NCBI GenBank assembly: GCA_965248735.1
Contig: OZ252146.1
Location: 2,276,154 to 2,340,153 of the forward strand
Origin: Candidatus Aldehydirespirator sp.
GTDB lineage: Bacteria > Actinomycetota > Acidimicrobiia > Acidimicrobiales > Aldehydirespiratoraceae
Reading direction: 5' to 3'
Length of the DNA: 64,000 nt
How positions within the stretch are numbered: position 1 is the stretch's first letter; each line of letters starts with the position of its first letter. A program made the position numbers and the translations under genes. Below are positions 24,619-46,191 of the stretch, piece after piece. The notes below the pieces were generated by a model. The model was not told the origin of the DNA. It searched no databases and worked only from the letters and a program-made list of their open reading frames with translations.

Positions 24619-24650
24619 GACCCTTCACTCCACGTTTACGCGCAGGGCCG

Positions 24651-26602: not shown

Positions 26603-26618
26603 GATGCTCCTATGTTTG

Positions 26619-27917
26619 TCAAGTCGTGATTTCGGTGAGGTGGCGTTGGTAGCGCTCGGCGAGGTCGCGGTTGTGGTAGAGGCCCCGTTCGAGGGCTGAG
26701 ATGCGGGTGGGCCAGACATCGAGGGCTCGTGCTGTGGTGTTGATTGTGAGCCCGCGTCGGGTGCGTTGGCGGCGGAGGTCCGTTCCGTGGGGAACGGCGG
26801 GCGGGTCTGTGAGCAGCCGGTAGACGTCGCGTGCGATGTAGCGTTTGAGGCAGCGGATGATCTCGCGGCGGGTCTTGCCCTCGGCGCGTCGCCGCGCGGC
26901 GTACTCGATGGTGCGGTCGTCTATTCGCATGCGGATCATGGCGATGCGCTACAGGGCGTTGTTGGCTTGGCGGTTGCCGCCGCGGTTGAGGCGGTGGCGC
27001 ACGGTGGCGCCCGAGGACGCTTCCACGGGGCTGGTGCCGCACAGCGCAGCGAAGGACGCCTCGCTGCGCATCCGGTCGGGGTTGTCGCCGGCCGCGGCGA
27101 GCAGCGCAGCGGCGATGTCGGGGCCGGCCCCGCAAGCGCCGAGCAGCGCCGGGTCAACTTGTTCGCACAGGCTGAGCAGGTCTGCGTCGAGAGCGTCGAT
27201 CTCGGCTGTGAGCGCCCGGTGGCGGCGTGCCAGCGTCCGCAGCGCGGTCTTGGCCGCCGCGTCGACAGCGCCGGCGGCGGTGTCGGGGCGCAGCCGGGCG
27301 CACACGTCGACGATGGCGGCGGTGCGAAGTCCTCGCAGCCGGTCTTTGAGGTGCTCGCCGGCGGTGACGACGAGGCCGTGGACCTGGTTGGCGGCCTGGG
27401 TGCGGGCCTTGACCGCCGATCGGCGGGCCACGGACAGCATCCTGATCGCCTCGACGGGCCCGTCGCCTGCTTTGGGCTCGGCGGCGGCCTCGCCGTTCAG
27501 CGCGGCCCGCGCTGCGGCGATGGCGTCGACAGTGTCGGTCTTGCCCCGACGGCGGCGTGCCTGGCGGTTGGGGCGGTTGACCTCCAGCACCCGTGTCCCG
27601 TCAGCGGCGAGACGGCGCGCCAGGCCCGCCCCGTAGGAGCCGGTCCCCTCGACGCCGACGGCCTCGACCGTCCCGTGGGACTCCATCCAGGCGAGCAGAT
27701 GGTCATAGCCCTTCGCGTCGGCGGGGAACGAGGCCGTTCCCAGCGTCCGTCCCAAGCCGTCCATGACGGAGGCCACATGGGCGTCCTTGTGCGTGTCGAC
27801 CCCGCCGATGACGGAGGCCTGATCCTGTGGCATAGTTGTCCCTGCCCTTGCTGGTCTGTCCGGTGATGGCGCACCACCGGCCGGGGCGGCGGACAGGACA
27901 CTCACGATGTCAAGCAC
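26619..27917 (-). pseudogene. IS110-family transposase with a single in-frame TAG (Tyr position)
   Basis: N-terminal DEDD domain 'VIGGVDTHKDAHVASV', C-terminal 'FAALCGTSPVEASSGATVRHRLNRGGNRQANNAL'. TAG at 26949-26951 is followed in the same frame by 'RIAMIRMRIDDRTIEYAARRRAEGKTRREIIRCLKRYIARDVYRLL'. Related transposases have 'NxALYxIA' here. Confidence 0.8.
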
Positions 27918-28153
27918 AAGGCTCCTGACTTGTTGAAATAGCGGTCAGCATCCCAGTCCCGGCGGGGACATAGGGTGCTAGGTCGGTGACCGGTTGGGCT
28001 CACACGCTCCTTGCCCGCCTCGGTGTGGCTCTCTTATAGCGTGCCCGGCCGGTCGCCGCCCGCTGCGGCGTGGCTCAATAGAGGCGTGAATCGTTTCCTG
28101 AATTCAGGTTGCCCGCCGCGGAACCCGTATCCGGCAACCGCAAGGAACGACTC

Positions 28154-28569
28154 ATGACTGTCGTTATCGGCATTGATCGACACAAGGCTTCCCACACCGC
28201 GACGGTGGTAGGCCCTGATCTGGCCGAGGCCTCCACGATCAGAGTGCGAGCAGCCCGCTCGACGACCGAGGAGCTGCTGAGATGGGCCCAGGCACAGCCC
28301 CAGCGGCGCTGGGCGATCGAGGGCGCCCGCGGGCTGGGCCAGCTGCTGGCCCAGCAGCTCGTCGCCGCCGGCGAGCATGTCGTCGATGTGCCCGCCACCC
28401 TCGCGGCGCGGGTGCGGACCCTCGACACCGGCCACGGCCGCAAGACCGACCGCGCCGACGCCCGATCGGTCGCGGTGGTCGCCGCTCGGCGCCCCGATCT
28501 GCCCCGAGTCACAGCAGATGACCACCACCGCGTGCTGCGGCTGCTCGCAGACCGCCGCGACGAGCTGAC
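28154..28569 (+). pseudogene. IS110-family transposase, N-terminal fragment (different IS110 member), interrupted by IS3
   Basis: 'MTVVIGIDRHKASHTATVV...WAIEGARGLGQLLAQQLVAAGEHVVDVPATLAARVR...GRKTDRADA' is the DEDD N-terminal domain. The reading frame ends at the IS3 left end. Confidence 0.8.
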
Positions 28570-28656
28570 TGTAGTGATTCTGGGATCGTGTCCGGTTTTA
28601 GGTCGTTGATTACGGAGCATCGGGGTGGGAGCATGGCGCTGTGAAAGGAGCGTCAG

Positions 28657-29001
28657 ATGACTGATACCTCGAGGTCCTTGGAGCGTGGCGGACGCCGCGG
28701 GAGGCGGCGGTTGTCGCCTGTGGAGAAGTACGAGGCGTTCGTGCAGGTGCTCACGGGTGAGATGACCGTGGTCGAGTGCGCGGACCATTGGGGCGTGGAC
28801 CGCTCCACGATCATGCGGGCCCGCGAGGTCGCCAAGCGCGGCGCTCTGGACGCGTTGGCGTCGTCTCGTCCCGGGACGCGCTCCGGCGGCGTCGCCCCGG
28901 AGTTGGTGATGGCCCGAGACGAGGCGGCCCGGCTGGGCGAGGCGCTCAAGGAGATGGCGGTCAAGGTCACCTTGTTGGAGGGAAAAGAGCGTTGGGGGTG
29001 A
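28657..29001 (+). CDS. IS3-family transposase OrfA (HTH)
   Basis: 114 aa. 'RRRLSPVEKYEAFVQVLTGEMTVVECADHWGVDRSTIMRARE' HTH plus a C-terminal leucine-zipper-like helix. Confidence 0.8.
   Translation: MTDTSRSLERGGRRGRRRLSPVEKYEAFVQVLTGEMTVVECADHWGVDRSTIMRAREVAKRGALDALASSRPGTRSGGVAPELVMARDEAARLGEALKEMAVKVTLLEGKERWG
28980..28986 (+). promoter_or_regulatory. Programmed -1 ribosomal frameshift heptamer G_GGA_AAA (orfA to orfB)
   Basis: In the orfA frame the codons read ga[G GGA AAA] gag. A -1 slip gives GGG AAA AGA GCG ..., i.e. 'GKRALGVTAGVPPRVEAG', continuous with the orfB frame. Confidence 0.6.
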
Positions 29002-30053
29002 CCGCCGGCGTGCCCCCGCGTGTCGAGGCCGGCACCAAGGCGGCTCTGTTGGACCTCGTCGACGGCGCCGTCGGGGCGGGCTGGAGCACAGCGCGGGCTT
29101 GCTCGGTGCTCGAGCTCGACGGCCGCCGGTGCCGCCGCTGGCAGCACCGTCGAGGCGCGGGCCGCCTCGACGACCACACTGCGGGCGGCACCGCGTCACA
29201 TGCCATCACCCCAACAGAGCGCCGGGCGATCGTGGAGCTGTTCGAGCGCTGGGGCGACATCGACGGCGGCTACCGCAAGCTCGCGCACCGCGGCTCCTAC
29301 GAGAACCTGGTCTGGGTGTCGCCGTCGACGCTGTATCGCGTTCTCGCAGCCCAGGGCCTGGTTCTGCCCGCCCGCCCGCAGCGCACACCCGCGCCGGCGC
29401 GGCCCCTGCCGGACTGGATCGAATGGAAGCGCCACCAGATCTGGATCTATGACATCACCCACTTCCCCAGAGCTGGGCGGGTCGCCTACGCCATCTTGGA
29501 CGTCGTCACCCGCAAATGGCTCGCCACCCTCGTCACCGCCGAGGAGACCGCCACCCAAGTAGAGGCCGTCTTCACACAAGCCCTCGACACCGAGGGCCTG
29601 TGGCCCGCCGTCGAGGCCCGCCAAGCCGACCGCGCCCGCCGAGGCGACGACAGCGACGAGGAGCCCATCCTGTTGGCCATGTCAGACAACGGCCCCCAGA
29701 TGCGCGCCGGCACCACCAGAGAGTTCCTCGCCCTCTGCAGCATCGCGTCGCGCTTCGGCCGGCCCGGCACCCCGACTGACCAGGCATGGATCGAGACCCT
29801 GTTCGGGCACGTCAAAACCGAATGGCCCCACCTCGAGAAGATCACCGACCCCAACACGCTGCGAGCAGAGCTCGACATCGCCCGACACGACTACAACACC
29901 CGCCGCCTGCACGCCTCCCTCGGCTACGTCACCCCCGACGACGAACACCAAGGACGAGCAGAGCGCATCCGCCAGGCCCGCCAAGACGGCCTCAACCGGG
30001 CCCGCCTCACCCGCATCGCCTACCATCGCAACAACAAACCCAACCAGCCATGA
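28986..30053 (+). CDS. IS3-family transposase OrfB (DDE integrase core), expressed as an OrfAB fusion by -1 frameshift
   Basis: 'IWIYDITHFP', 'LAMSDNGPQMRAGTTREFL', 'DQAWIETLFGHVKTEW' and 'YNTRRLHASLGYVTPDDEH' are rve-domain D,D(35)E hallmarks. Confidence 0.85.
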   Translation, partial: RALGVTAGVPPRVEAGTKAALLDLVDGAVGAGWSTARACSVLELDGRRCRRWQHRRGAGRLDDHTAGGTASHAITPTERRAIVELFERWGDIDGGYRKLAHRGSYENLVWVSPSTLYRVLAAQGLVLPARPQRTPAPARPLPDWIEWKRHQIWIYDITHFPRAGRVAYAILDVVTRKWLATLVTAEETATQVEAVFTQALDTEGLWPAVEARQADRARRGDDSDEEPILLAMSDNGPQMRAGTTREFLALCSIASRFGRPGTPTDQAWIETLFGHVKTEWPHLEKITDPNTLRAELDIARHDYNTRRLHASLGYVTPDDEHQGRAERIRQARQDGLNRARLTRIAYHRNNKPNQP

Positions 30054-30460: not shown

Positions 30461-31204
30461 ATGAGCGCACTTGAGAGCCGGGAAGTCAGTTCGGATGCGA
30501 GCGAGAGTCCGCCGTTCACAGAGTTCCCGGAGACACGCGAGCCCCCGCATCTGGAGATACCGCAGCGACACTGGCTTGGCTCTGACAGCGGCTATAGGGA
30601 CCGACCCCTGAGGGAGTTCCGCGAGCGGTGCCCAGATGAGTACATCGAGCCGTGGGCATCATCGGTGCGAGGAGAGGAGTTTCCTCGCCCGGAGCGCTTC
30701 ACGGACACCGTCAACCCGAAGTTCGGTGAGTCGCCGTCCTACGAAGTCAACTGCAGCGATTGTGCCCGGGCCGTGGAGAGGACGTGGCGAGGCAATCATG
30801 AGACTGCCGCTGGCCGCAGCATCGTGACCGGCTCCGACGGTGTGCCGGAATGCAAGGGGGAGCCTCCCGAGCAAATGGAGGAGTGGGCCGGGGAGCCCTT
30901 CACCTCCGTCGAGGTGGCCGATATCGGCGAGCGAGTCGAGGCAGCCGGGCCCGGGGCCAGCGCCATCGCAATCTCAAAGTTCGAGTATCCCGACAGAGTC
31001 ACCGGTGTCCACGCCTACAACGTGGTGAACGATGGGGGCGAGGTAAAGGTAATAGACGGCCAAAGCGGCGAAGTGCTCCCTTGGAGCGATGAGACAGGGC
31101 ATCCATTCCTGCACGACGTCTCGGATCCACGGCAATCCGGCCTCCGGGGCAGAGGAAGGTCGCTCGCGATGGGCTGGGATGCGGAGGGGCGGTCACTGTG
31201 GTAG
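30461..31204 (+). CDS. Papain-fold toxin-domain protein (glutamine-deamidase-type 'Tox-PL/Gln_amidase'-like C-terminal domain)
   Basis: 'VNPKFGESPSYEVNCSDCARAVERTWRGN' is the catalytic-Cys context NCxxCA. 'GVHAYNVVNDGGEVKVIDGQSGEV' is the catalytic-His strand followed by the DGQ motif. Pattern recalled from polymorphic-toxin papain-fold domains. Confidence 0.55.
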   Translation: MSALESREVSSDASESPPFTEFPETREPPHLEIPQRHWLGSDSGYRDRPLREFRERCPDEYIEPWASSVRGEEFPRPERFTDTVNPKFGESPSYEVNCSDCARAVERTWRGNHETAAGRSIVTGSDGVPECKGEPPEQMEEWAGEPFTSVEVADIGERVEAAGPGASAIAISKFEYPDRVTGVHAYNVVNDGGEVKVIDGQSGEVLPWSDETGHPFLHDVSDPRQSGLRGRGRSLAMGWDAEGRSLW

Positions 31205-31455
31205 GTGAGATGTCGGAGATGCAGGCCCGCAGGGTGCTCTCCCAAGCCGGCTCGCCCGCCGCAGACCCGGCGAGGTACCGCGCGCGCCGCATCAGCGGAG
31301 GCTGGTCGTTCGACTGGCGAGAAGATGCGGGACCGCCGCTGATCGGCACAATCGGGTGGGTGGTCGCCGACAACGGACGATGCCGGGGCCAACGGCTGGG
31401 GATGAGGGCGGACCAAGTCGTGCAGGCATTGATGGATACCGATTCGCCAGACTGA
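31198..31455 (+). CDS. Putative cognate immunity protein
   Basis: 85-aa ORF overlapping the toxin stop by 7 nt. 'RARRISGGWSFDWRED...IGWVVADNGRC' resembles small immunity proteins with a GW-F...vV..nG pattern. The call rests on position. Confidence 0.4.
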   Translation: MVGEMSEMQARRVLSQAGSPAADPARYRARRISGGWSFDWREDAGPPLIGTIGWVVADNGRCRGQRLGMRADQVVQALMDTDSPD

Positions 31456-31506
31456 CGACGGCGACAGATCCGCCAGCTGAACGACTGCCGACCAGAGCCT
31501 GTCTGT

Positions 31507-32121
31507 TCACCGCCTGCGTACCAAGCCGCTCGCCATGCCGGCGATCGCGTCAGGCAGATCGTCCTGGGTTGCCGCGCTTCTGGGCGCTTCGCGGCTCTCG
31601 GTTGATATCTCAGCCAAGCTCTCAGCGCTGGCGTCGCCCAACCCGCACGTGAGAATCCTGATGTTCTTCTCCTGCAGCTCTGCCGCACGAACTCGGGCGC
31701 GGTGCGGATCGCCCAGGTCTCCATCACCGAAGATGGCCACCACCAGATCACCCGACCGCCCGTCCAGCATCTGCTCCGCCAGGTCCAGGGTGGGCACGAT
31801 GTCGTTTCCGCCTCCTGCATCAGCACGGCGCAGGAATCGCTCAAGCTTTCGTGCACCGCGCCGAAAGTCGGTCAAGTCAACGATTCCGTGATGCCAGAGG
31901 ATGATGCCGACCTCATAGTGGGCGTCGAGTGCCTCAGCGACGAAACGCTCCGATCCCCGAACGGCCTGCTCCAAGCGCGTTCCGTACATCGAGCCGCTTA
32001 CATCCAGGCACAGCACCACCGAGCCGCCGAAGCGGTCCTGGAGGGCTCGCAGTGCCTGGCCGGTCGGATACTGAGTCAGTCCGGCGGCGGTGAACTCTCG
32101 TCGGATCCAGGTGGTTGCCAT
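31507..32121 (-). CDS. von Willebrand factor A (vWA) domain protein
   Basis: MIDAS 'LCLDVSGSM' (DxSxS), '...GGGNDI' and 'VAIFGDGD'. 204 aa. Start is 4 nt after the stop of the upstream Hsp70 gene. Confidence 0.8.
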   Translation of the reverse strand: MATTWIRREFTAAGLTQYPTGQALRALQDRFGGSVVLCLDVSGSMYGTRLEQAVRGSERFVAEALDAHYEVGIILWHHGIVDLTDFRRGARKLERFLRRADAGGGNDIVPTLDLAEQMLDGRSGDLVVAIFGDGDLGDPHRARVRAAELQEKNIRILTCGLGDASAESLAEISTESREAPRSAATQDDLPDAIAGMASGLVRRR

Positions 32122-32125
32122 CCGG

Positions 32126-33715
32126 CTACCCTCCTCTCGTCAAGCGCGAGACCGCCTGTTGTTGTTGCTGTGCGGCCGCTGAGTCCACGACCCCGTCCAT
32201 GTACGACTCGATGGTGAGTTGTCGGCCACTGGTCGGCTCGGTCGCGGTGCAGGAGATCCGGCCGTCGGTCGAGACTGAGACAGACACCTCGACCGGTGAA
32301 CCCGCCTTGAGATCGGGAAGGTCCGTGAGTTGCCCGTCGAGCACCCGCCGGTTGTTCACCACCTCTTCAGAGGGGCGCGACCCGGCCTGCTCGTAGAGCT
32401 GTACGCGGATCTCCCTTTGGTTGTCCAGGATTGTGGCGTAGGTGGCGCTCTTGCTGACCACCGGCAGCGGAGTGTTGGGCTCGAGCAGATGGTGAACGAA
32501 CTGCCGGGTGCCGCTGGAGTCGTGACTGTCGTGCAGCAGGATGCCGAGAGCGCGGGGGAGCACGCCGGCTGAGGGCCTCAAAGCGAGCCCGCGACTCGAC
32601 TTCGACGAACGTTCGCCCGTGCCCGAGGCCAGAAACCGCTGGGGGTTGCGGGCTCTATTCAGCGCCGCGGCGTGCAGCGCAGCGCCTTTCGCTACCGCGA
32701 GGTCGGGGTCGTTTAGGTGAACCCGCACATCGAACTGGCGGTTGAGTGCCGCGGCGATCATCGGCATGTGTGTCGATCCGCCGACGAGAATGATCTCGGT
32801 CAGCGATGAGCGACTCTTGTTCCTAGCTTCCTCAATGGTGCGTTCGACCACTTCCATTGTGGCCGTCACCAAGTCGCGGCATAGCGCCTCGAAGTCGTCG
32901 CGTCGAACGTGCACCGTGAGGCGGTTGCCGGGCAAGTAGAGCGTGACGGTGGTGGCCTCTCGGGTGCTGAGCTGACGCTTGGCTCGCTCGACCGAGTTGG
33001 CGACTTGCAGCATCAGGTCGTCGTCGTCAGCCAGGTCGGGGTCGCCCACGATTCCCGCGGCGCGTTCGATGATGAAACCGCCGAGTCGCTCGTCCCAGTC
33101 GAGTCCGCCCATCTGGCTCAGACCGTCTGTGATCAGCACGCTGGGTCCGTGCTCGGTGAGCTCCAGCACCGTCGTGTCGAAAGTACCGCCGCCGAGATCG
33201 TAAACCAGCACGAGCCCCGACGCTCCGGTGTCGACACCGTATGAGATCGCCGCCGCGACGGGCTCGTCCACCAGTTCCATGAGGCTCAATACGGCGATAC
33301 CAGCCGCTAGGGCAGTCGCCTCTCTCTCGCGAGAGCCGAAGTAGGCCGGAACGGTTATCACCGCAGCCAGATCCTCCGAGCTGAGACCCAAGGCGAGGGC
33401 CGCGCTGCGTGCAAGCCCGTCGAGGATTATCGCCGAGATGCCCTCGGGCGTGAATGAGGCCGATCCGAACCTCCTCGTGATGTCGGTGCCCATCTGACGC
33501 TTGATCGCGGTGACGACACTGTCCGGTTCTATGATGCCGAGATCCTTGGCGTCGGCGCCGACAATGGGTTGCCCCTCATCGGGAAAGTAGACAACCGAAG
33601 GCGTCAGCTTCTCGCTGTCTTCGTTCAGTACGGGCACGGCCTCCCCGGCCTCATTGACAGCAGCTACCACTGAGTACGTGGTGCCCAGATCGATTCCGAT
33701 GGGACGTGGTGGCAC
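32126..33715 (-). CDS. Hsp70-family ATPase (copy 1), lacking the C-terminal helical lid
   Basis: 'IGIDLGTTYSVVA', 'VITVPAYFG', 'VYDLGGGTFDTTVLE' and 'IILVGGSTHMPMI' are actin-fold Hsp70 phosphate and adenosine motifs. 529 aa versus about 620 for DnaK. Confidence 0.85.
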   Translation of the reverse strand: MPPRPIGIDLGTTYSVVAAVNEAGEAVPVLNEDSEKLTPSVVYFPDEGQPIVGADAKDLGIIEPDSVVTAIKRQMGTDITRRFGSASFTPEGISAIILDGLARSAALALGLSSEDLAAVITVPAYFGSREREATALAAGIAVLSLMELVDEPVAAAISYGVDTGASGLVLVYDLGGGTFDTTVLELTEHGPSVLITDGLSQMGGLDWDERLGGFIIERAAGIVGDPDLADDDDLMLQVANSVERAKRQLSTREATTVTLYLPGNRLTVHVRRDDFEALCRDLVTATMEVVERTIEEARNKSRSSLTEIILVGGSTHMPMIAAALNRQFDVRVHLNDPDLAVAKGAALHAAALNRARNPQRFLASGTGERSSKSSRGLALRPSAGVLPRALGILLHDSHDSSGTRQFVHHLLEPNTPLPVVSKSATYATILDNQREIRVQLYEQAGSRPSEEVVNNRRVLDGQLTDLPDLKAGSPVEVSVSVSTDGRISCTATEPTSGRQLTIESYMDGVVDSAAAQQQQQAVSRLTRGG

Positions 33716-33741
33716 AGTTTTCTCCTACCTGTTTCTCCTAC

Positions 33742-36540
33742 CTACGGATGGGGGCTATTCGCGGTTGTCCCCGTGGCGGAGGCACGTGACAGAAGGTCTT
33801 CGAGAGCGTCGGATGGGAGACGTCCGGCTTGGGCCGCTTGAGCGAGTTGGCATCTCACCAGCCGGAAGGCCGGGTCCGCGCCCAGCAGCGGTTCGAGCCG
33901 CTCGACCTCTGACCGGGCCCAGCGACCGACGTCGCCGAAAGACTCCCGCCAACCGCGGCCCGCCAGAGCCGGCGGGCCGACGCGGGGCGCCGCCTCGTTC
34001 AGGAAACCGGCCGGCACCCGTACCCTGCACCCCCGCCCGCATGATCGGCACTTGGGGCTTGCGGTGAGACCGGCAACGTCGATGGTTCCTTGGCACGCCG
34101 GTTCTTTGTGCACCCACACCTCATAGGAGCGGTGCAACATCTGGTCGAATGCACGCCGGCTGGCGATGCTGCCCTCGGCGCGCTCTCGCACGAGCACGCG
34201 GCGCAAACCGACCCACGCCAGGCACTCCGGGGGGGTGCTCGTGTTCGGTCGGCTGGCCAGCAGTTGCATGTAGGTGTGGCGGCGCAGTGCGTCGCCGTCT
34301 CCGCTGCCTGCTCGAAGACCCACCAAGAACAGGGCCATGTGGGGCGCCGCGTCGGCCGCAGCGGCCCAGGCTCGGTAGTGGCCTTCGGCTTTGGCAACGG
34401 TGTCGGGCGAACAGCATGGCCACGAAGCCGCTTCCCCTGCGGGCGGGCGTGCCGAGTGGGACCCGTGTTCCTTGGCTGGCTCGACCTGGATGGTCTGTGG
34501 GTGTGGCTCATCCCTCGTCGACATGATTGCCTGTCCGCGCCGCAAGGTTCCGAGCAGGCTGGAACTGTCGTCGTCGAGGCCGATCGCCGCGGCAACTTCG
34601 GCCTGGTCGCCCGGGTGCACAACGCGATGAACCAGCTTGAGGTTCGTGTTGCGCAGGACGTCCGAGGAGACTTTGCCCGGGCTCTGGTCCACGACTATCA
34701 CCTGCTGGCCGAAGCTGCGAACCTCTGCCAGCATTGCCGAGAGCAGCTCTGTCGACACCCGTGACGCGCTGCCGTGCTCGTCGTCGGGAGACGACTCTGG
34801 AATGTGGGGGATGACCCTGTGTGCTTCCTCCAGCACGAGCAGATGGCCGACCGGCTGCGTGGTGGGCTGGCAGCGGGCGCGGTTCCAGGCTGCGAGGACA
34901 AGGACGAGGACAATGAAGGAGCGTTCCTCATCGTCTGGGATGTCGGCGAGGGTGACCATGGTGGGCGCGTGGAACAGCGACTGCACCATGGTTGAGTCGG
35001 TCCAAGTGAACCGGTGGGCGCGAACCGGCGAAAGCAGGACGTTCAGGCGCGTCATCAGGGCGGCGAGGATGTTGGTGCGGGCTTCCGCCGCGTAGCCGAG
35101 GGAATCGACGAGCGGCCCGAGCGCGTCGCGCAGGTCGTGCAGATCGCTGCCCGCGGGGCCCCCAGGCTGCACCGACAGGGAGTCGAACAAGTGGGTCACG
35201 ACGTACGGTGTGGGGCTGGGCATGGTGAACGCGCCCCGAAAGGCTTGCGCCACCCGAGCGACGTGGGCACGCGCGTCGGTGCCGGGCCAGGTCTCGAGCA
35301 AGTTCAATCGCAGCTCGCGGCCGCTCGCCACTGTGACGCCTCCCTCGAACAGCGCCGCGGCCTCGGAGTACTCGTCCTTGACCGGGTCGATCACGAGGAA
35401 GGGGATGCGATGCTTGTTCCACGCCTCCGACAGCACACGGTGCAGCGAGGTCGTCTTGCCGGAGCCGGTGGTCCCGGTGAAGAAGGCGTGCCCCTCCAGG
35501 TCGCCGACCCCGATTGAGGCCGAAGTGGGCTGACCCCAGTACCGGCCGAGAGTGATCGTGCGGCTGTCGGTGGATGGTCGGCGCCCTGACGGGGGCGGAA
35601 GTCGGACCCCGAGCCCAGGGATTCCAGCGCGCGGCGCCTCGAAGAGGGCGCCGACGTCGCGGCTGGTCAGCACCGATCGCGGAGGCGGTGCCCCTTGGCC
35701 GGTGCATTCCAGCGATGAGGTTGCGAACGTGCGTCCCGCGTCGGGCGGAATGGCGGAGCGCAGGGCACCGACGACGCTCCGAATCACGGCTGCATGGTTG
35801 CCCGCCACCCAGGTGTCGACGGTCCATAGGCCGTCGGCACGGCCTCGCACCGCGTGGGAGTGGAGTATCTCGATCCACGACTGCGCCCGACTCCACAACG
35901 GGGAGACCACAGTCGCTGTCTCGATGCCGGTGACGGCGCGGCTCACCGTGACTCTCGCGGCCGCGGCGTCGGCGAGTTTGAGCAGCGTCTCTGCGAACTC
36001 GTCGACCGCCTGGACGCTCACGCCGTCGAGTCGCCAGTGAACCAGCCAGTCCCCGTCGAGCCCTGCGAGCTGGTCGAGCGCGGTGGCAGGCCGAGCATCG
36101 GCAGGGCCGGAGTCTCGCAGCTCCCCCTGCAGCCGGTGGGTCAGGCCGAGCGCCTCCCAGTCGGCGCAAGGCGGCCTCTCCAGCGCGAGGTCACAGGAGG
36201 GAGCGAGCAGGGATCGTGCCCGGTGCCGCGACCGTTCGTCGTCGAAACCAAGAAAGAGCTGGCTACCGGTCGTGTCCGCATGGTGAAGTAGGACCTCGAC
36301 ACTGGTCCTCGCGCCCGTCTGGGGGATGAGCATCTGCTCTAGAGGAGACGGGACAAGGGGATCACGCACGGGAAGCGCCGCGATCCGGAGCCAATGTCTG
36401 GAGCGCATAGGCGGTCGAGGGCTGCATAGCCCACTCTTGAACTGGCCGTAGCTGAGGTCGAGGAGCAGTTGTTCCGGCGGTGAGTCTCCGACCCGCTCCG
36501 GAAGGCCATAGAGTTCGGCGACCGGTGCTTCCGCCATCAC
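33742..36540 (-). CDS. HerA/FtsK/VirB4-like P-loop ATPase (DUF87-type), 932 aa, with C-terminal Cys-cluster region
   Basis: Walker A 'FFTGTTGSGKTTSLH', Walker B 'HLLVLEEAHRVIP', 'VIVVDQSPGKV', 'LRRGQAIMST'. C-terminal 'SPKCRSCGRGCRVRVP'. Confidence 0.7.
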   Translation of the reverse strand: MMAEAPVAELYGLPERVGDSPPEQLLLDLSYGQFKSGLCSPRPPMRSRHWLRIAALPVRDPLVPSPLEQMLIPQTGARTSVEVLLHHADTTGSQLFLGFDDERSRHRARSLLAPSCDLALERPPCADWEALGLTHRLQGELRDSGPADARPATALDQLAGLDGDWLVHWRLDGVSVQAVDEFAETLLKLADAAAARVTVSRAVTGIETATVVSPLWSRAQSWIEILHSHAVRGRADGLWTVDTWVAGNHAAVIRSVVGALRSAIPPDAGRTFATSSLECTGQGAPPPRSVLTSRDVGALFEAPRAGIPGLGVRLPPPSGRRPSTDSRTITLGRYWGQPTSASIGVGDLEGHAFFTGTTGSGKTTSLHRVLSEAWNKHRIPFLVIDPVKDEYSEAAALFEGGVTVASGRELRLNLLETWPGTDARAHVARVAQAFRGAFTMPSPTPYVVTHLFDSLSVQPGGPAGSDLHDLRDALGPLVDSLGYAAEARTNILAALMTRLNVLLSPVRAHRFTWTDSTMVQSLFHAPTMVTLADIPDDEERSFIVLVLVLAAWNRARCQPTTQPVGHLLVLEEAHRVIPHIPESSPDDEHGSASRVSTELLSAMLAEVRSFGQQVIVVDQSPGKVSSDVLRNTNLKLVHRVVHPGDQAEVAAAIGLDDDSSSLLGTLRRGQAIMSTRDEPHPQTIQVEPAKEHGSHSARPPAGEAASWPCCSPDTVAKAEGHYRAWAAAADAAPHMALFLVGLRAGSGDGDALRRHTYMQLLASRPNTSTPPECLAWVGLRRVLVRERAEGSIASRRAFDQMLHRSYEVWVHKEPACQGTIDVAGLTASPKCRSCGRGCRVRVPAGFLNEAAPRVGPPALAGRGWRESFGDVGRWARSEVERLEPLLGADPAFRLVRCQLAQAAQAGRLPSDALEDLLSRASATGTTANSPHP

Positions 36541-36746
36541 GCTTGGAGCCGCGCTATCAGGGGCATTGTCCCATCAATCCCTGCACTACTTCCGCGGCTG
36601 GGATCTCCTACTGACTTGAATGTCTCGCAACCCCACGAGTCAATCCGACCGGAAGACTCACCCTTCAAGATGACGCGGTCTGCGGCATGAGTCGTCTCTG
36701 AGAGTTCAGCGCCAGCATGTTCCACAAGTACGGGCGTATCGCTCAT
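36537..36746 (-). CDS. Small hypothetical protein (69 aa), translationally coupled on both sides
   Basis: 4-nt overlaps with both the upstream and downstream genes. No recognisable domain. Confidence 0.4.
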   Translation of the reverse strand: MSDTPVLVEHAGAELSETTHAADRVILKGESSGRIDSWGCETFKSVGDPSRGSSAGIDGTMPLIARLQA

Positions 36747-37702
36747 AGGACTATCGATAGTAGAAGAAACACCATCAGGACCACAGCGATGACATACAGA
36801 AGCGTCACACCCTTGGATGTTCGGGCCGCGGCAGGGATATAGGGCCTTATGATTGTGCCGGAATCAACATGCGTGACCGTTGTTACGTTGAGCACGTTGG
36901 TGTGCCGCGAAAGGCGTCCATGGACCGTAACCCGGTCTCCGACACTGATAGATCCGCCTCGTAACTCGCCACGCAACGCGCAATGCCGGGTTGTGCCGTC
37001 GTCGACCTGGAGGCGAAACGGAGTGATGGGTATGTGCAAGGGGTCGAGACGTTGCCCGGAGCGCCGGCCGGAATGCAACGACATCATCGCCATCGGTCGG
37101 GAGAACAAGAACATGAGCAGGAAGCCGAGGGCGCGGATCGGTGCCAGCAGGCATCCTCTGGCAGCACCCCGCGCCAGGCTCTCCGCGCGGCGGTCGACGG
37201 TTTCGATCTGCTGCGGCAGGATCTCCGTGACGCGGCCGGAGACTGTAGTGCCCGGCATCAGGCCTGAACTGTCGGCAGTTGTGGAGGCCGAGTCGGCCGG
37301 GCTGCCCGACGTGGTGTGGGTGCCGTCGCCAGTGGCGCGCCGACGGGGCGGGTCACTCCCGCTCCCTGCCGTCGAGGCTGAAGTCGGGGAACGCGGAGCA
37401 TCGCTGGGGCTGGCAGGTGGCACGGAGCCAGGATCGGTGGATGCGGAATCGGTCATGTTCGCACGCCGATGGCCGCCGTCGCCTCGCGCCCGCCCGTCGG
37501 AATCAGCCTGCCCGGGCGAGCGCCAGTGGCACACTCCGCAGCGTTGAGGAACCCGCGAGTCCAGTGTGCGCCCACATCGAGGGCAAGTCTCAAAGATCAA
37601 GACCGTGCTCCTATGCGTCCCAGGGGAAGGGGACAGACCGTGCGATGGAGTTCTGCACGTCCAGGATGCGGCCCCACCAGTCATCCAAGAGGTCAGGACC
37701 AT
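36743..37702 (-). CDS. Zinc-ribbon / S-P-T-rich / two-TM protein with an OB-like beta domain (start uncertain)
   Basis: 'CPRCGRTLDSRVPQRCGVCHW' zinc ribbon, a low-complexity S/P/T/D linker, TM 'LLAPIRALGFLLMFLF', a beta-rich 'FRLQVDDGTTRHCALRGELRGGSISVGDRVTVHGRL', and C-terminal TM 'VTLLYVIAVVLMVFLLLSIVL'. A TTG at 37600 would avoid overlap with the 71-aa ORF. Confidence 0.55.
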   Translation of the reverse strand: MVLTSWMTGGAASWTCRTPSHGLSPSPGTHRSTVLIFETCPRCGRTLDSRVPQRCGVCHWRSPGQADSDGRARGDGGHRRANMTDSASTDPGSVPPASPSDAPRSPTSASTAGSGSDPPRRRATGDGTHTTSGSPADSASTTADSSGLMPGTTVSGRVTEILPQQIETVDRRAESLARGAARGCLLAPIRALGFLLMFLFSRPMAMMSLHSGRRSGQRLDPLHIPITPFRLQVDDGTTRHCALRGELRGGSISVGDRVTVHGRLSRHTNVLNVTTVTHVDSGTIIRPYIPAAARTSKGVTLLYVIAVVLMVFLLLSIVL

Positions 37703-37826
37703 TGCTGTCCGACGTCCACCACACGATGAGAGCGACCGTCAGCACAATGACGAACCCGACGTGTAGCGCGCTCCAACAACGACGGAGCACCTTGTAGAGG
37801 GGCGGAGGCGGAGGGTCCGGGTTCAT
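37611..37826 (-). CDS. Small single-TM protein (71 aa)
   Basis: 'MNPDPPPPP...' followed by TM 'ALHVGFVIVLTVALIVWW'. ATGA overlap with the stop of the upstream GTPase gene. Confidence 0.45.
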   Translation of the reverse strand: MNPDPPPPPLYKVLRRCWSALHVGFVIVLTVALIVWWTSDSNGPDLLDDWWGRILDVQNSIARSVPFPWDA

Positions 37827-39610
37827 GCTGGCTTCTCGGTCTCATCGGGCGGCGCATTCTCGTCTCGCCCAGGTCGATCTTGGGTTGGTGCCGCCTGGCG
37901 TGGCAGGTCTAGCCCCGCTGAGGTCTGAGTTCCATAGAGTGATGCGATGAACGACACCGGACGAAGCGGATGGACTGTGCTGTCTTCGGGCAACCTGGAC
38001 ATGGAATCGACCATGAAGTAGACGACACGCTCGAAGTCCAGTTCCATGCGCTTCACCAAACGATCCTCGCCAGATGCCATCAGCCATTCGCGAATCGACT
38101 CTGAACGAGTCGAGCCCATGAAGACGATGGAGACTTCGCGCAGGACATCGGCCTTCGTGAGCACTAATCCAAGGGCTCGTTTGTGAAGGGGGACGCTCTC
38201 GTTTCGCATCCGATCCACGGCTGATGAGTAGGCGTCAATTGCCTTGCCTGGCGCCACCTGCACCGGTAGCCGAGAATCCATTCGCTCGAGGCGGGCGCGA
38301 CAATGGTCGAGAGCGAGGGGATCTACCACGAAGAGGAGCGCCAACGCATTGTCCAGATACCTCAGACTCGATGTCGATTCCCAGCTACTGAAGTGTTGGC
38401 CAGCGGCGTCGATAAAGTGCATCTCGACCGACCGCCTTCTCGACCTTTTTGTCATGAAGTCATACACGAGGGGGCTATGTGCAACACTCGTATTGGGCAT
38501 TGAACTGCCTACGTCTAGGACACTTGTGAAGTTATTCAAGCCGTTACTGGCCAATCGAGAAAGTGGTACCAACTCTCCTCCATCGGCCGAGAGTCTTGTT
38601 GACAGATGAGCCATAGCCGAACCTAGCAGATGAGTCTTGCCTGCGTTCGATTCACCAATCACGGGAACAAGGAACGTTCGACGCGTTCCTGCACCTTCGG
38701 ATTGCGGCGTGTCACAAGTCGGACACCTTACGGTCATCCCTCGGCTAGCTCGGAGGACCGTTGTCGGTAGGTTGCTTCCGCACTCACACCGTCTAGAAAT
38801 TACACCCAATCGCGTAGCACGAATATCCCGATGCACTACTGGACAGTCGGCATCGGTGCATTCGTAGCTTGGAACTCGAGTCTCAGCGTAGCACTGCGTG
38901 CATACCATAGAGGCCCTTCGTCGGGTAAGGGCAAACCAGCCGATCGCTTGAAATGCCGATTGAAAAATACGTTGTCCTATAGTAATCGTCAGTCCGATGG
39001 CAATCATTACCACTGTCCAAATGAGTAGGGACATGGCTATACCCAAGAAAACAGCTAGGAAAGGGCCTATCATGATAGCAAATCGAATGAAGTCGACTAT
39101 TCCCTTGCTGTATTGCCTTGAGGTCTTCTTGGCAGCAGCGGTATGCGGTCCTGGTGTTGGTACATTCCCGCCAGAGAGATCGCCTACCATAGCGGGTCCC
39201 AACAGCAGCCTGCCTGTCTTCCTGAGCCAATGCAAGACTTCGAGACGCACGGCATTCACATCGCTTTTGGCTTGAAATGGAATGTACGTCGGCCAAGCCC
39301 TATCCCATCCATAGTGCTCTGCAGGTCCGCTCGGATTTGAACGGAATACATGGCCAGTGGCGACACGATCGGGCGTGAGCAGGACAGGTGACGATGCGCT
39401 CCGTCCAGTGAGAACCGCCAGCGGAATCCATGTGCCTAGTCCGCCGCCTACAACGACTGCCGTTGTCGCAACAACAAGATACGTTGTTACGACAATCGCA
39501 AGCAGTCGAACGAGTAGTGCTACCACTATCCAAACGGCAAATACGACAGCCGCCGCAACGATAGCTATGGCAACAATGGACCAAAAACATCCACTGAGAT
39601 CATCATCCAT
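37823..39610 (-). CDS. Membrane-anchored zinc-ribbon TRAFAC-type GTPase (candidate 'double-GTPase' partner 1)
   Basis: N-terminal TM segments. 'CTQCYAETRVPSYECTDADCPV...CECGSNL...RCPTCD' zinc ribbons. G1 'VIGESNAGKT', G3 'IDAAGQ', G4 'VLTKAD'. Confidence 0.65.
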   Translation of the reverse strand: MDDDLSGCFWSIVAIAIVAAAVVFAVWIVVALLVRLLAIVVTTYLVVATTAVVVGGGLGTWIPLAVLTGRSASSPVLLTPDRVATGHVFRSNPSGPAEHYGWDRAWPTYIPFQAKSDVNAVRLEVLHWLRKTGRLLLGPAMVGDLSGGNVPTPGPHTAAAKKTSRQYSKGIVDFIRFAIMIGPFLAVFLGIAMSLLIWTVVMIAIGLTITIGQRIFQSAFQAIGWFALTRRRASMVCTQCYAETRVPSYECTDADCPVVHRDIRATRLGVISRRCECGSNLPTTVLRASRGMTVRCPTCDTPQSEGAGTRRTFLVPVIGESNAGKTHLLGSAMAHLSTRLSADGGELVPLSRLASNGLNNFTSVLDVGSSMPNTSVAHSPLVYDFMTKRSRRRSVEMHFIDAAGQHFSSWESTSSLRYLDNALALLFVVDPLALDHCRARLERMDSRLPVQVAPGKAIDAYSSAVDRMRNESVPLHKRALGLVLTKADVLREVSIVFMGSTRSESIREWLMASGEDRLVKRMELDFERVVYFMVDSMSRLPEDSTVHPLRPVSFIASLYGTQTSAGLDLPRQAAPTQDRPGRDENAPPDETEKPA

Positions 39611-42032
39611 TGCTGCGGTCCTTGGGAGCGGCGCGAGAAGTGGCTTTTCTCCATTCTCTACGTTGAAATCGTTCGCGCAAGGGCGTCACTGTCTTGAGCA
39701 TGCTTCCAAATTTCGCAGCAAATGAATCATCGAGGGATTCTCCAACGAGCATCACCGTAGCCCGGTTGCGTGGGTCGTACCACCAGTCCTTCAATGCAAG
39801 TGCGATTGCCTCACGAAGATCTGCTGGGCAGCCAGGGTGCAACCACATAAGTGTGGAAACATACACTGCATCGATCGGATCAATCGTGAGTCTGTCGGAT
39901 AGAGATTCCAAAATGGGATGACGCCAGTCAATTTGGTGTAGGTTCAAAATGGCTGCCGACGTCTCGACGTCATGGCATTCCATAGCGAGCTTCGCGATGG
40001 TCCGATGTCTCAAGATGATCGCTCGGCGACAATGAGACGCGATTCTCTGAAGAAATGCATTTGGGTGCAGAAGTCTATGATCGACACTGGCTGCTTGGAT
40101 GCTCCACCGCACAATGTCTTCGCTTTCGCTCATCAATTTTCTAGTGGATTCGGTGAGGCCATCCGGTTGGAGTTGAATCAGAAGGTCCACGAGCACAACG
40201 ATGCACGAAGCGTCTCCAGAACTTGTGAGGCGCTGGGTGACGATCCCTTCAATGACAGCGGCTAGGCTTGGCTCAATTGTGTCGTGAACCCGAAGCCATA
40301 GGTCGAGAAGCGGGATGTCGAGCAGATTGCTAAACCCAAAAAATGCGTCCCATGAAGTGGGCGCACAGTGTGAAACGTACCGTTCGAATTCCTGCCGTCG
40401 AGCGGGGGTATCGAGTTTGGCGAGCTTACCGGCGAGAAGCCACGGAAACAGTGGATTGTCAGGAGTGAAGACTTCGGGAACGTTCGCTGCCCAGTCCCAT
40501 ACTCCCGCCCGCAGTTGTGCGACCACCTCTGAACGCTGAGTGCCGTAGAGTCGGGAAGACAGCGTGTCGCATACGGCCATTCGGACGCATTCGGTGTGCA
40601 GCCACGAGGTGTGTTGGCGTTCGAGCTTTGGATTGGATACCCAGAGTTGGCCGAGTCGTTCGATAGATGAATGCACCAGTTCGTGAGAGAGTTCGGTATT
40701 TAGCCATCGTGCGAGCGAAAACATATCGGACAGCACGTCATCAGGCGAATCGTCGACGATTGTGGCCAACAACCTCGCGGCGTGGCTACGCGCATCTTGA
40801 TCGGGCCAGTCGATGGTCGGTGGCACGCCTTCGACCGCGAACGTCCGGGCCCATACAGAGGACGCCACCGTAGATAATGCCGAGACTTCAAGCGCAGCCA
40901 ATGTGCACCCAGTCATCAATTCATTTTGGTCGCATTCGTGTAGTGCGACGATCGCGCGGAGGAGTAGCTCAATAGTCGCGTCATCACTCGCATCAAATTC
41001 GTGCACAGCATCGACCAAAGAGGGTCCAAAAGTGGAAAGATCGGCGCTCTGTTGATGCCTTGCAAGTGCCTCCAATACAGCAGCAGCTGCAGGAGCAGGA
41101 CTGCGAACGTGTCGACTGTTCAGAACGACTCTCTCGGCGGCGATGACAGCGACGTCTGGGGACAACAGGTTCTGCCAGCGCCGGCTGACCTGAACCGCTC
41201 TCAGTGCCTGCAACGGATCGGCCTGAAGGAACCAACGCGCATAGACGTGAGCCGTCTCATCCGTTTCAACTGCGGTACCTTGAAAGGAGCGGAGATCAAA
41301 CCAGTTGGCCTCGGAGGGGATGGGTTGTTCCAACAGATCAGGGTCGGTTCCAACAATATCGAACCGCGCATCAGCTACTGGCCTATTGCTGAAGGCATAG
41401 AAGCTAGTCGACAACGCTGTGTCGCGATCCAAGAAAAGTGTTCCAACCGTTATCCACTGCGCGATAACTTGGAGATCGGTGTGAAGAAGAACGAGGCGCG
41501 TTCTCGGCTTGTGAGATGCTTGCTCGACCATTGTCAGGAAACTGGGAAGAGCATCAACAGCCGCCGTTGATGCTGCAACTAGGTACTGCAAGGCGGAGAG
41601 TCCGAAAGAGTCGCTGACCGACAGCGGAGCCGTGAGCGATGGCAAGGTCGTGGTCGGTGACTTCTGTAGCGTCCAGACTGATGCGCCAAAGAGCTGCGCT
41701 GGAAGATGACTGACAAAGTCGTTGGCGTCATGGGTAACAATACAATGTGTGACTTGATTACCCGACCGTCCATCAGCCATGCGGCCCAGGTACCTTCCCC
41801 GGGCTACGATGAATCTGTCCTCTACCGCCAGGTATGCGAACGATTGAGGAAACTCCTCGTTCTCGAGTCTACGCTGAACGAGTGAGTGTGGCACGACATA
41901 CAGGACATTACGAGCGAGTGCCTCATCTTCTTGATCGGTATCATCACTGACTGCATAAAACTGAAACCCTGTACGAAAGTGAATCGATTCTTCGCGAGAT
42001 GCATCCGTATAGATAAGGCTGGCGAAACTCAC
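39603..42032 (-). CDS. Large cytoplasmic alpha-helical protein, candidate GTPase-associated protein (GAP1-like N-terminus)
   Basis: 809 aa. The N-terminus 'SLIYTDASREESIHFRTGFQFYAVSDD...GRSGNQVTHCIV' resembles the 'QLhYTS...GFQ..A.S' pattern I recall for GAP1 N-terminal domains. Sits between the two GTPase genes. Confidence 0.45.
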   Translation of the reverse strand: MSFASLIYTDASREESIHFRTGFQFYAVSDDTDQEDEALARNVLYVVPHSLVQRRLENEEFPQSFAYLAVEDRFIVARGRYLGRMADGRSGNQVTHCIVTHDANDFVSHLPAQLFGASVWTLQKSPTTTLPSLTAPLSVSDSFGLSALQYLVAASTAAVDALPSFLTMVEQASHKPRTRLVLLHTDLQVIAQWITVGTLFLDRDTALSTSFYAFSNRPVADARFDIVGTDPDLLEQPIPSEANWFDLRSFQGTAVETDETAHVYARWFLQADPLQALRAVQVSRRWQNLLSPDVAVIAAERVVLNSRHVRSPAPAAAAVLEALARHQQSADLSTFGPSLVDAVHEFDASDDATIELLLRAIVALHECDQNELMTGCTLAALEVSALSTVASSVWARTFAVEGVPPTIDWPDQDARSHAARLLATIVDDSPDDVLSDMFSLARWLNTELSHELVHSSIERLGQLWVSNPKLERQHTSWLHTECVRMAVCDTLSSRLYGTQRSEVVAQLRAGVWDWAANVPEVFTPDNPLFPWLLAGKLAKLDTPARRQEFERYVSHCAPTSWDAFFGFSNLLDIPLLDLWLRVHDTIEPSLAAVIEGIVTQRLTSSGDASCIVVLVDLLIQLQPDGLTESTRKLMSESEDIVRWSIQAASVDHRLLHPNAFLQRIASHCRRAIILRHRTIAKLAMECHDVETSAAILNLHQIDWRHPILESLSDRLTIDPIDAVYVSTLMWLHPGCPADLREAIALALKDWWYDPRNRATVMLVGESLDDSFAAKFGSMLKTVTPLRERFQRREWRKATSRAAPKDRSNG

Positions 42033-42050
42033 AATCGGCCCTCAGACTGT

Positions 42051-43223: not shown

Positions 43224-43232
43224 GACAGGAAA

Positions 43233-46145: not shown

Positions 46146-46191
46146 CTTGGTCGGTCTCTTCCAATCACCACGCTAGAGCCGTTCTGAACCC

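Follow-up and report, generated by a model that had tools for sequence, protein, structure and literature searches.

Closest described systems

GAP1-N2 GTPase-centric conflict systems were predicted computationally by Kaur, Burroughs, Iyer & Aravind (eLife 2020, PMC7159879), and were placed there in ~900 genomes, with enrichment in multicellular bacteria and a correlation with the multicellular habit. Their DO-GTPases are described there as a TRAFAC clade, usually bearing zinc ribbons (ZnR) at the N-terminus; where two paralogues occur, one carries N-terminal transmembrane helices (TMs). In the second theme of section 29, found in actinobacteria and firmicutes, Hsp70 and GrpE accompany these genes, and a subset encodes a second Hsp70 described as "sans peptide-binding domain"; the FNIII protein is typically, not obligatorily, fused to DnaJ or TPR, and peptidases are presented as second-threshold elements. 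Here we describe a 64,000-nucleotide stretch of Candidatus Aldehydirespirator sp. (contig OZ252146.1, positions 2,276,154 to 2,340,153; hereafter the window) in which an operon of this class, at 31507-48734, harbors a portable cassette that unites a HerA-clade ATPase with a papain-fold Tox-PL1 enzyme.

SIR2-HerA and DUF4297-HerA each contain a toxic enzyme for which a HerA ring serves as scaffold and activator. Tox-PL1 domains have been encountered mostly in polymorphic toxins that are secreted and come with their own immunity protein, and some members are releasing peptidases (Zhang et al., Biol Direct 2012, PMC3482391). Type III-A CoCoNuTs (Bell et al., eLife 2024, PMC11090510) possess 5′ extensions with genes for Hsp70-like CnuD and TerY-like vWA proteins; EssC-like or EccE3-HerA/VirB4-like ATPase cassettes with small accessory genes are inserted in these systems, are movable and also occur stand-alone, and secretion has been proposed for the EssC-like and EccE3-HerA inserts.

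Two separable units in one locus

The conflict locus covers 30461-48734, comprising a GAP1-type operon of 12 genes (31507-48734, all on the minus strand) and a toxin pair on the plus strand, and it is very probably organized as two units. Unit A consists of GrpE, Hsp70a, an FNIII protein, a ZnR-GTPase, GAP1, a multi-TM ZnR-GTPase, the 71-aa single-TM protein TM71, Hsp70b and a vWA protein. Nested between the Unit A genes for TM71 and Hsp70b is Unit B, a portable cassette that encodes a ZnR/OB membrane protein, Tox-PL1, its ~80-aa partner and a HerA-clade ATPase of 932 aa. As judged from sequence, the catalytic motifs are intact in the ATPase, both Hsp70s and Tox-PL1. An initial annotation of this DNA had delimited a six-gene module at 31507-37826 and regarded it as a self-standing, undescribed system. 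Its six co-directional open reading frames (ORFs) are all present on the minus strand, with junctions of 4-nt overlaps or gaps of ≤26 nt as it had described, and its coupling to a GTPase module is borne out by a shared operon in which TM71 overlaps the DO-GTPase gene by ATGA. The limits of the module had to be redrawn, since the unit reaches 48734 upstream and takes in 30461-31455 downstream.

The division into units emerged from 16 loci with HerA orthologues at 40-95% identity. At least eight actinobacterial genera share the gene order, with proteins that are 40-47% identical, and a canonical order (FNIII, GTPase, GAP1, TM-GTPase, TM71, ZnR protein, an interval of ~1 kb, HerA, Hsp70b, vWA) recurs in 10 loci: L001 and L002 (both Modestobacter), L003, L004 (Cryobacterium aureum), L005 (partial), L008 and L012 (both Actinomyces), L009 (Bifidobacteriaceae) and the metagenomic L083 and L085. 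Synteny extends to all 12 genes in nine of them, L001-L004, L008, L009, L012, L083 and L085. Four other loci (L006, L007, L011 and L082) carry the cassette with no GAP1, Hsp70b or 204-aa vWA (vWA204) gene within 10 kb. In the Nocardioides loci L006/L007 (1599-7866), the cassette is divergent from genes for a 1,117-aa Tubulin_2 protein and an 866-aa vWA membrane protein, a neighborhood that fits the tubulin theme described by Kaur et al.; a CHAT (caspase-like) protein follows the cassette in Acidipropionibacterium (L011, 9947-11401), and a PIN gene does so in L082. Cassette-less GAP1 operons were retrieved using the vWA protein as query. L089 and L091 contain TM-GTPase, a small TM ORF, Hsp70b and vWA, while a 1,493-aa TPR protein occupies the cassette slot of the GAP1 operon in L087. 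The cassette of Schaalia (L010) is located apart from the operon and is convergent with it, and TM71, Hsp70b and vWA are contiguous there. Because each unit occurs without the other, TM71, Hsp70b and the vWA protein are assigned to the GAP1 operon, and the cassette is treated as a separable element in a variable slot.

These reciprocal absences (L089, L091 and L087 versus L006, L007, L011 and L082) indicate that the six genes combine two things, the end of a system predicted in 2020 and a separable cassette. A self-contained six-gene system that merely adjoins the GTPase module is contradicted by the compared loci and very unlikely. It could appeal to the tight coupling of the ORFs and to a GC break at the DO-GTPase/TM71 junction, which shows the 3′ half to be capable of recombining in one piece; however, Hsp70b-vWA occurs with DO-GTPase/GAP1 in operons devoid of HerA, HerA occurs without Hsp70b or vWA204, and none of the loci compared has HerA, Hsp70b and vWA but lacks GAP1 genes. 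Co-occurrence of the three independently of the GTPase module, which the initial annotation had proposed to look for, was thus not encountered.

PADLOC, run on all 14 proteins, reported no named system, only generic HerA-core and mad8 matches and weak PDC-M61B matches for the Hsp70s, and NCBIfam gave no equivalog match. Pfam had no match for the 71-aa, ZnR/OB, 69-aa or partner proteins. A literature search retrieved no HerA plus Tox-PL1 or papain-like defence system, and PADLOC has no model of a HerA/Tox-PL1/ZnR-OB cassette. What is new is the portable HerA/Tox-PL1 cassette nested in the locus, the type of operon that hosts it having been predicted in 2020.

The HerA-clade ATPase

The cassette ATPase (cassette gene 4; 33742-36540, minus strand; 932 aa) matches Pfam DUF87 at 24.2 bits (cut-off 23.2) and PADLOC HerA models at E=4e-14, and a PDB-sequence profile search led to HerA of archaeal repair and of anti-phage complexes. 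Foldseek comparison of an AlphaFold2 (AF2) model (mean pLDDT 85.5) returned HerA, VirB4/TrwK and defence HerAs at E ~1e-13 to 1e-9. Two motifs do not vary across the family, GTTGSGKT at residue 356 (Walker A) and LLVLEEAH at residue 567 (Walker B); the initial assignment to a HerA-type ATPase with these motifs was correct. Three regions can be distinguished: N-terminal α/β domains (~1-345), the P-loop core (~346-700) and a C-terminal helical, Cys-rich domain (~705-925) that is confined to the orthologous group. Conserved cysteines in the latter (HerA residues 707-838, window 34027-34422; WPCC, C773 and CxxCGxxC) suggest an element that binds Zn or has a redox role.

In both sequence and structure, the ATPase is matched best by SIR2-HerA and DUF4297-HerA together with archaeal HerA. 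As in those complexes (8wld, 8xau, 8zir, 9c1m), a HerA-clade core with conserved Walker motifs is encoded alongside a toxic enzyme. There are differences: the ATPase measures 932 aa against ~570-620 aa and bears large family-specific N- and C-terminal domains, and the effector is papain-fold Tox-PL1 with a small partner and a membrane ZnR/OB protein in place of SIR2 or DUF4297, neither of which was found in the locus or in orthologous loci. The match to NCBIfam HerA_antiphage (NF042943) amounts to 34.1 bits against a cut-off of 800.

The family is small, with 79 matches at 90% clustering, and ~44 clusters at 50% identity match full-length. Beyond the full-length clusters, the E-value leaps from ~1e-128 to 1e-82, into a superfamily of >2,000 large HerA-like ATPases. 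Distant relatives (29-31% identity, core) are encoded directly 3′ of two dynamin-family GTPase genes in Paenibacillus nanensis (L014, 3465-8254) and Anaerobacillus (L051), and another lies close to a DO-GTPase-related protein in Frankia (L023, 14864-17833). By these neighborhoods, large HerA-like ATPases are repeatedly linked with paired membrane GTPases.

A rival reading takes the ATPase for an FtsK/VirB4-like translocase of the type found in actinomycete integrative and conjugative elements, with a function in conjugation or DNA transfer. The protein does show weak Pfam/NCBIfam P-loop matches to TrwB, TraD and VirB4 as well as structural similarity to VirB4, but the profile matches are confined to the P-loop and fall far under the cut-offs (VirB4_plasma, 18.9 versus 590 bits). 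No full-length orthologue was present among 72,556 plasmids, which yielded only core matches at 27-31% identity, and none in phage and viral-contig collections. Relaxase, replication and integrase genes are never among the conserved neighbors, and more than 20 loci were devoid of relaxase, type IV secretion system (T4SS) components and WXG/LXG substrates near the ATPase. Conjugation or DNA transfer is thus largely refuted, with a very low probability, and the T4SS/conjugation partners that would have spoken against the initial annotation are absent. Conjugative and prophage origins were both rejected on the distant core matches, or none at all, in the plasmid, phage and viral-contig searches.

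Tox-PL1, its partner and a gene relic

In orthologous loci, the ~1-kb interval between the ZnR gene and HerA encodes a ~240-aa Tox-PL1 protein (PF15644, E=2e-19) and a ~80-aa partner with the family motif GGWxFxW..WVVxDxG. In the window, the corresponding genes lie just downstream of the operon and are inverted: Tox-PL1/Gln_amidase (cassette gene 2; 30461-31204, plus strand; PF15644, 65.8 bits, E=1e-17), with catalytic C98, H184 and D199-x-Q, and an 81-aa partner (cassette gene 3; 31210-31455, plus strand) that is immunity/inhibitor-like and displays the motif GGWxFxW..WVVADNG. Tox-PL1 and the ZnR protein occur in 16/16 loci; the partner was detected by phmmer in 15/16 and by eye in the 16th. 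All 16 toxins preserve the NC..H..DxQ triad without variation, which indicates selection for an active catalyst. The window pair is 49-50% identical to that of L082, which also provides the nearest relative outside the lineage of both HerA (71%) and the ZnR protein; this agreement identifies the relocated genes as the cognate cassette pair. The same relocated layout is common to L105-L107, relatives that are 86-95% identical. The toxin/immunity pair that the initial annotation had noted next to the module is thus no bystander, being the Tox-PL1 and partner of the cassette itself. Mirror-tree comparisons of HerA with the other genes gave Pearson coefficients of 0.73-0.97, driven by a few close pairs, and Spearman coefficients of 0.40-0.77; no claim is based on them.

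In this lineage, the pair moved just downstream and was inverted, leaving a relic in the original slot. A 69-codon ORF at 36537-36746 (minus strand) matches positions 116-149 of a Tox-PL1 family profile at 11.9 bits (E=6e-6), compared with a maximum of 5.1 bits in 1000 shuffles. The match falls between the catalytic Cys and His, so that this internal fragment includes no catalytic residues. The ORF has an atypical GC content at third codon positions (GC3) of 0.54 and is missing from L106 and L107, where a clean indel of 192 nt takes its place. Tblastn and blastn of the slot against the L082 toxin and partner found no similarity, the relic being visible only by family profile. The 69-aa protein listed initially thus exists as an ORF, yet its sequence marks it as the decayed remnant of an ancestral in-slot Tox-PL1 gene and not as a conserved gene. 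Since the move, the toxin/partner pair has faced the 17-kb operon in convergent orientation, the stop codons being only ~50 nt apart (31455-31507), and transcriptional interference or antisense coupling across this interval is possible. No terminator-like hairpin was found there; promoter and terminator consensus scans, which covered the surroundings of the relocated pair and the region upstream of grpE, are uninformative in DNA of such high GC content.

The pair resembles Tox-PL1/Imm35 pairs in its NC..H..DxQ signature followed by a small overlapping gene. It differs in the lack of a trafficking or secretion domain, of toxin polymorphism between loci and of a recognizable Imm35, and it is normally embedded between the ZnR protein and HerA. 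These features bear on an export model, in which a small secretion apparatus is built from the ATPase and the ZnR/TM protein (compare EccC/EssC of type VII secretion systems (T7SS) and VirB4 of T4SS) that sends Tox-PL1 to neighboring cells, with the partner as kin immunity. Tox-PL1 is typically a domain of secreted polymorphic toxins accompanied by an immunity protein (PMC3482391), the Foldseek alignment of the ATPase with VirB4/TrwK spans ~800 columns, cassette gene 1 is membrane-anchored, and secretion has been proposed for the analogous CoCoNuT inserts (PMC11090510). However, one and the same toxin family is present at every locus and diverges along with HerA; the N-terminal 95 aa of Tox-PL1 match no Pfam domain and show no WXG, LXG, RHS or signal domain; hydrophobic helices number two at most in the membrane protein, with no other secretion components conserved nearby; and the partner is not recognizable as Imm35. 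We consider toxin export unlikely on this balance.

The ZnR/OB membrane protein

Cassette gene 1 (36743-37603, minus strand; 286 aa) is read from a start codon that its relatives share. If translation is taken from the first ATG, the ORF extends over 36743-37702 (319 aa) and overlaps TM71 by 92 nt, for which reason the start at ~37603 is favored. Alignment of orthologues revealed a conserved layout: a zinc ribbon (CPRCG..CGVC), a disordered low-complexity linker, a β-hairpin, a hydrophobic helix, a β-domain of ~70 residues and a C-terminal TM. An AF2 model from a shallow 7-sequence alignment has a mean pLDDT of 60, with 84-92 in the β parts. Fold searches with the β-domain retrieved RPA/SSB OB domains at E ~0.01 and target-normalized TM-scores of 0.6-0.7, and the predicted fold is thus weakly OB-like; given the mean pLDDT of the model, the OB assignment stays weak. 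The zinc-ribbon/two-TM/OB-like description offered initially therefore holds for the layout and only faintly for the OB fold.

This protein is central to a further alternative, in which the HerA ring is a DNA/RNA translocase loaded by the ZnR/OB protein at the membrane onto phage nucleic acid and Tox-PL1 is not a toxin but an inhibitor-held processing or regulatory peptidase. HerA/FtsK proteins are nucleic-acid pumps, and the best structural matches of the ATPase are HerA-NurA and defence HerA-DNA complexes. The β-domain resembles RPA/SSB/MCM OB folds, with a zinc ribbon before it. Some Tox-PL1 proteins are releasing peptidases (PMC3482391), and Kaur et al. present peptidases as second-threshold elements (PMC7159879). 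This alternative is nevertheless improbable, to about the same degree as export: the OB match is as faint as stated above, no nuclease partner (NurA, SIR2 or DUF4297) was found, and a toxin gene followed by a small partner gene is the classic toxin/immunity layout.

The GAP1-N2 DO-GTPase operon

Unit A begins with a gene for a GrpE-like nucleotide-exchange factor (47805-48734, minus strand, as for all genes of this unit), which matches Pfam GrpE at 28.8 bits (cut-off 25.8) and stands in a low-GC block. It is followed by Hsp70a (46192-47808; 538 aa; Pfam HSP70, E=7e-86), whose nucleotide-binding domain (NBD) and short C-terminal part are like those of Hsp70b and which aligns full-length with Hsp70b orthologues. 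The 970-aa FNIII-repeat protein (43233-46145) has a marginal Pfam fn3 score (25.3 bits, cut-off 25), and orthologues occupy the same place in L001-L012, with syntenic counterparts in all canonical loci; it is predicted to be the sensor component of GAP1-N2 systems. The 390-aa ZnR DO-GTPase paralogue (42051-43223) combines a zinc ribbon with a P-loop and scores 19.8 bits for PF19993, under the cut-off of 27, but its syntenic orthologues match at E=1e-66 to 1e-85 and it cross-matches the 595-aa paralogue. GAP1 (39603-42032) matches PF20013 (GAP1-N2) at 78.6 bits and PF20014 (GAP1-M) at 29.0 bits, both above the cut-off of 24. The multi-TM ZnR DO-GTPase2 (37823-39610; 595 aa) carries TMs and CxxC pairs, matches PF19993 at 56.2 bits (E=5e-15, cut-off 27) and agrees with the DO-GTPase description of Kaur et al. 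(PMC7159879). ATGA-coupled to it, TM71 (37611-37826) has orthologues at E=1e-14 to 1e-5 and belongs to Unit A, where it is probably a split-off C-terminal TM helix; small TM ORFs similarly follow the GTPase in the cassette-less L089 and L091.

Hsp70b (32126-33715; 529 aa) matches Pfam HSP70 at E=1e-79. Its NBD covers residues 4-353, and the β part of the substrate-binding domain (SBD-β), at residues 408-503, aligns to DnaK 415-506; the protein ends at 529, confirming that the helical lid is absent. The vWA protein (31507-32121; 204 aa; VWA_2, E=7e-12) was initially credited with an intact MIDAS. DxSxS and the distal D are present, but the Thr position is Asn (GGGND), so that wording was slightly overstated.

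A 33-aa peptide forms the N-terminus of the vWA protein (window 32020-32121), with the consensus W[IT][KR][KR]xF..G[LV]T[QE]YPxG..L..LQ...GGS and the window form WIRREF..GLTQYPxG... In close relatives, the same peptide heads leucine-rich-repeat (LRR) proteins encoded beside the system (L105, 17373-17978; L106, 15681-16988 and 18352-18909). As the peptide occurs fused to a vWA domain in some proteins and to an LRR domain in others, it is suggested to be a docking or adaptor element. The window retains LRR gene fragments at 25360-26582 (minus strand) that are truncated, IS-interrupted and without the N-terminal peptide, with repeats of 72 nt (24 aa); the gene is intact in L106 and L107, and the undamaged orthologues of close relatives carry the peptide. 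A former accessory component broken by insertion sequence (IS) elements is a possible origin of these fragments. Only in Modestobacter L001 (14319-15549) do two tandem vWA204 paralogues follow Hsp70b, both 3′ of the cassette, an arrangement that recalls the duplicated vWA genes of CoCoNuT III-A.

All core features of the Hsp70/GrpE theme are thus represented: two ZnR DO-GTPases (one with TMs), GAP1-N2 and GAP1-M, FNIII, GrpE, two Hsp70s, an actinobacterial host and membrane-proximal components. On sequence grounds, Unit A is a GAP1-N2-type DO-GTPase conflict system of this theme, lacking the "typical" DnaJ/TPR fusion. Unlike in the "typical" theme, the FNIII protein is without detectable DnaJ or TPR, and the second Hsp70 keeps its SBD-β whereas that of PMC7159879 does not. 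A vWA protein is present here and none is mentioned in the text on the Hsp70 theme. The HerA/FtsK ATPase, the Tox-PL1/papain-like enzyme and the ZnR/OB membrane protein likewise go unmentioned for these systems in the text of the paper.

Parallels in other conflict systems

Type III-A CoCoNuTs provide an architectural parallel, as they too feature a GTPase-centered operon with an Hsp70-like NBD/SBD protein, a vWA protein and an inserted, movable cassette for an FtsK/HerA-superfamily ATPase, and some of their vWA copies also lack the MIDAS Thr. The initial annotation's statement that it knew of no system uniting Hsp70, vWA and a HerA-like ATPase was accordingly too strong (PMC11090510). The components themselves differ: the CoCoNuT GTPase is McrB-like (CnuB, NxD) and comes with McrC/DUF2357, coiled coils and HEPN, all of them missing here, where the GTPases match DO-GTPase2. 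The accessory genes of their cassettes are for WXG100 proteins, nucleases or a small helical protein but not for Tox-PL1, hosts and protein families differ, and duplicated vWA genes flank the ATPase cassette, compared with a single vWA gene in the window. The resemblance looks like convergent design around a different GTPase (McrB).

MoxR-vWA ternary systems (PMC7159879) similarly couple a vWA co-chaperone with an ATP-driven chaperone as a proposed threshold device; however, 30.4-48.8 kb contains no MoxR or AAA_3/AAA_5, and the vWA protein pairs with a lid-less Hsp70. Membership in the SIR2-HerA/DUF4297-HerA, CoCoNuT, T4SS/T7SS, polymorphic-toxin and MoxR-vWA classes was considered and rejected, a defining feature being missing in each case.

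Composition and mobile elements

The genes from GrpE to the TM-GTPase (37823-48734) have a GC content of 0.53-0.55 and GC3 of 0.54-0.60, compared with 0.63-0.69 and 0.71-0.80 from TM71 to vWA and in the toxin pair (30461-37826), and 0.67-0.69 in the host flanks. The break is sharp and coincides exactly with the DO-GTPase/TM71 junction, while orthologous operons in all other genomes are uniform; the sensor half was evidently replaced by recombination with a donor of lower GC content. The locus has IS elements on its flanks, and neither a tRNA nor inverted repeats delimiting an island were found. The transposase cluster (23557-30053) includes an IS30-like gene (23557-24555) with a 283-nt repeat, 87% identical, at 26318-26600, IS110-like genes at 26949-27917 and 28109-28609, and an integrase-type ORF at 28776-30053; it probably drove the rearrangement of the locus tail. 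A VTT/DedA-family membrane protein gene at 24662-25363 also adjoins the locus in L105, and a partial second copy (88% protein identity) is located at 21960-22394.

The conflict-system context proposed initially is supported by the IS flanks, the GC break and the conflict-type neighbors of the cassette (tubulin/vWA, CHAT and PIN). A housekeeping or developmental function such as membrane remodeling, septation or protein quality control in filamentous actinobacteria is disfavored. That idea draws on the correlation of GAP1-N2 with the multicellular habit (PMC7159879), on Hsp70 and GrpE being chaperones, on the dynamin pairs beside distant HerA relatives in Firmicutes and on the tubulin beside the Nocardioides cassette. 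Against it stand a patchy distribution (the ~44 full-length clusters at 50% identity), IS-rich flanks and rearrangements, foreign GC content in half of the operon, variable slot occupancy and a toxin-like enzyme with a dedicated partner, and we judge it most improbable.

Proposed mechanism

The best explanation is that 30461-48734 constitutes one anti-invader conflict locus of Units A and B, probably acting by abortive infection; including the mechanism outlined below, we put its probability at roughly 0.55. A conflict role as such is likely, while the specific mode of activation of the cassette, drawn by analogy, is doubtful in its particulars. As Kaur et al. predicted, sensor and switch would be provided by the two membrane-anchored GTPases together with GAP1 and the FNIII protein, perceiving an invader cue at the envelope. 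Hsp70a/GrpE and the lid-less Hsp70b/vWA pair would set an ATP-driven chaperone/co-chaperone threshold, with docking by the vWA N-terminal peptide, and the cassette would serve as output. Its HerA-type ring, held at the membrane by the ZnR/OB protein, may assemble or activate Tox-PL1, for example by stripping off the small inhibitor, as suggested by analogy to SIR2-HerA and DUF4297-HerA. Tox-PL1 would then deamidate or cleave a cellular target, leading to arrest or death of the infected cell. The idea of a chaperone/vWA layer coupled to a membrane/ATPase arm, already present in the initial annotation, is retained as right.

Several points weigh against this explanation. A literature search returned no experimental study of GAP1-N2 systems; their defence role is itself a prediction. 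PADLOC has no model for any Unit A component. No J-domain (DnaJ) or TPR was detected in the FNIII protein, searched at full length or as residues 1-140 and 1-400 at E up to 10. The cassette may already be drawn, unnamed, in the figures of PMC7159879. A physical complex of HerA, Tox-PL1, the partner and the ZnR protein is proposed by analogy. The partner gave no Pfam match to Imm35 at E up to 10 across 12 members, and none to any other Pfam family. As Tox-PL1 is mostly known from secreted polymorphic toxins, export fits it as well as intracellular suicide, and an OB plus ZnR protein beside a HerA-type translocase could point to nucleic-acid handling.

A broader joint proposal goes beyond this explanation and is somewhat less probable than not. 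In it, the cassette would be a self-sufficient portable effector module and a new HerA-scaffolded immune effector, with a papain-fold deamidase or peptidase replacing SIR2 or a nuclease, that plugs into varied NTPase sensors (DO-GTPase/Hsp70, tubulin and CHAT). As part of the same proposal, the Hsp70b-vWA pair would use the transferable 33-aa docking peptide, shared with LRR proteins, to swap recognition heads.

Implications

Hsp70-theme GAP1-N2 systems had no obvious killing component. The locus and its canonical relatives offer a candidate effector arm, predicted from sequence, that consists of a membrane anchor, a large HerA-type motor and a papain-fold toxin with intact catalytic residues and a dedicated partner. 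Natural "experiments" on this arrangement are offered by operons that have or lack the cassette, by cassettes that stand apart from any such operon and by a lineage with a moved toxin pair. If the proposed explanation is true, the HerA-scaffold principle of SIR2-HerA and DUF4297-HerA would extend to protein-modifying effectors, and the locus would reveal the way in which chaperones of the Hsp70 class are connected to bacterial immunity. The resemblance to CoCoNuT III-A, in which a GTPase, an Hsp70-like protein, a vWA protein and an inserted FtsK/HerA ATPase also come together, would then count as convergent design.

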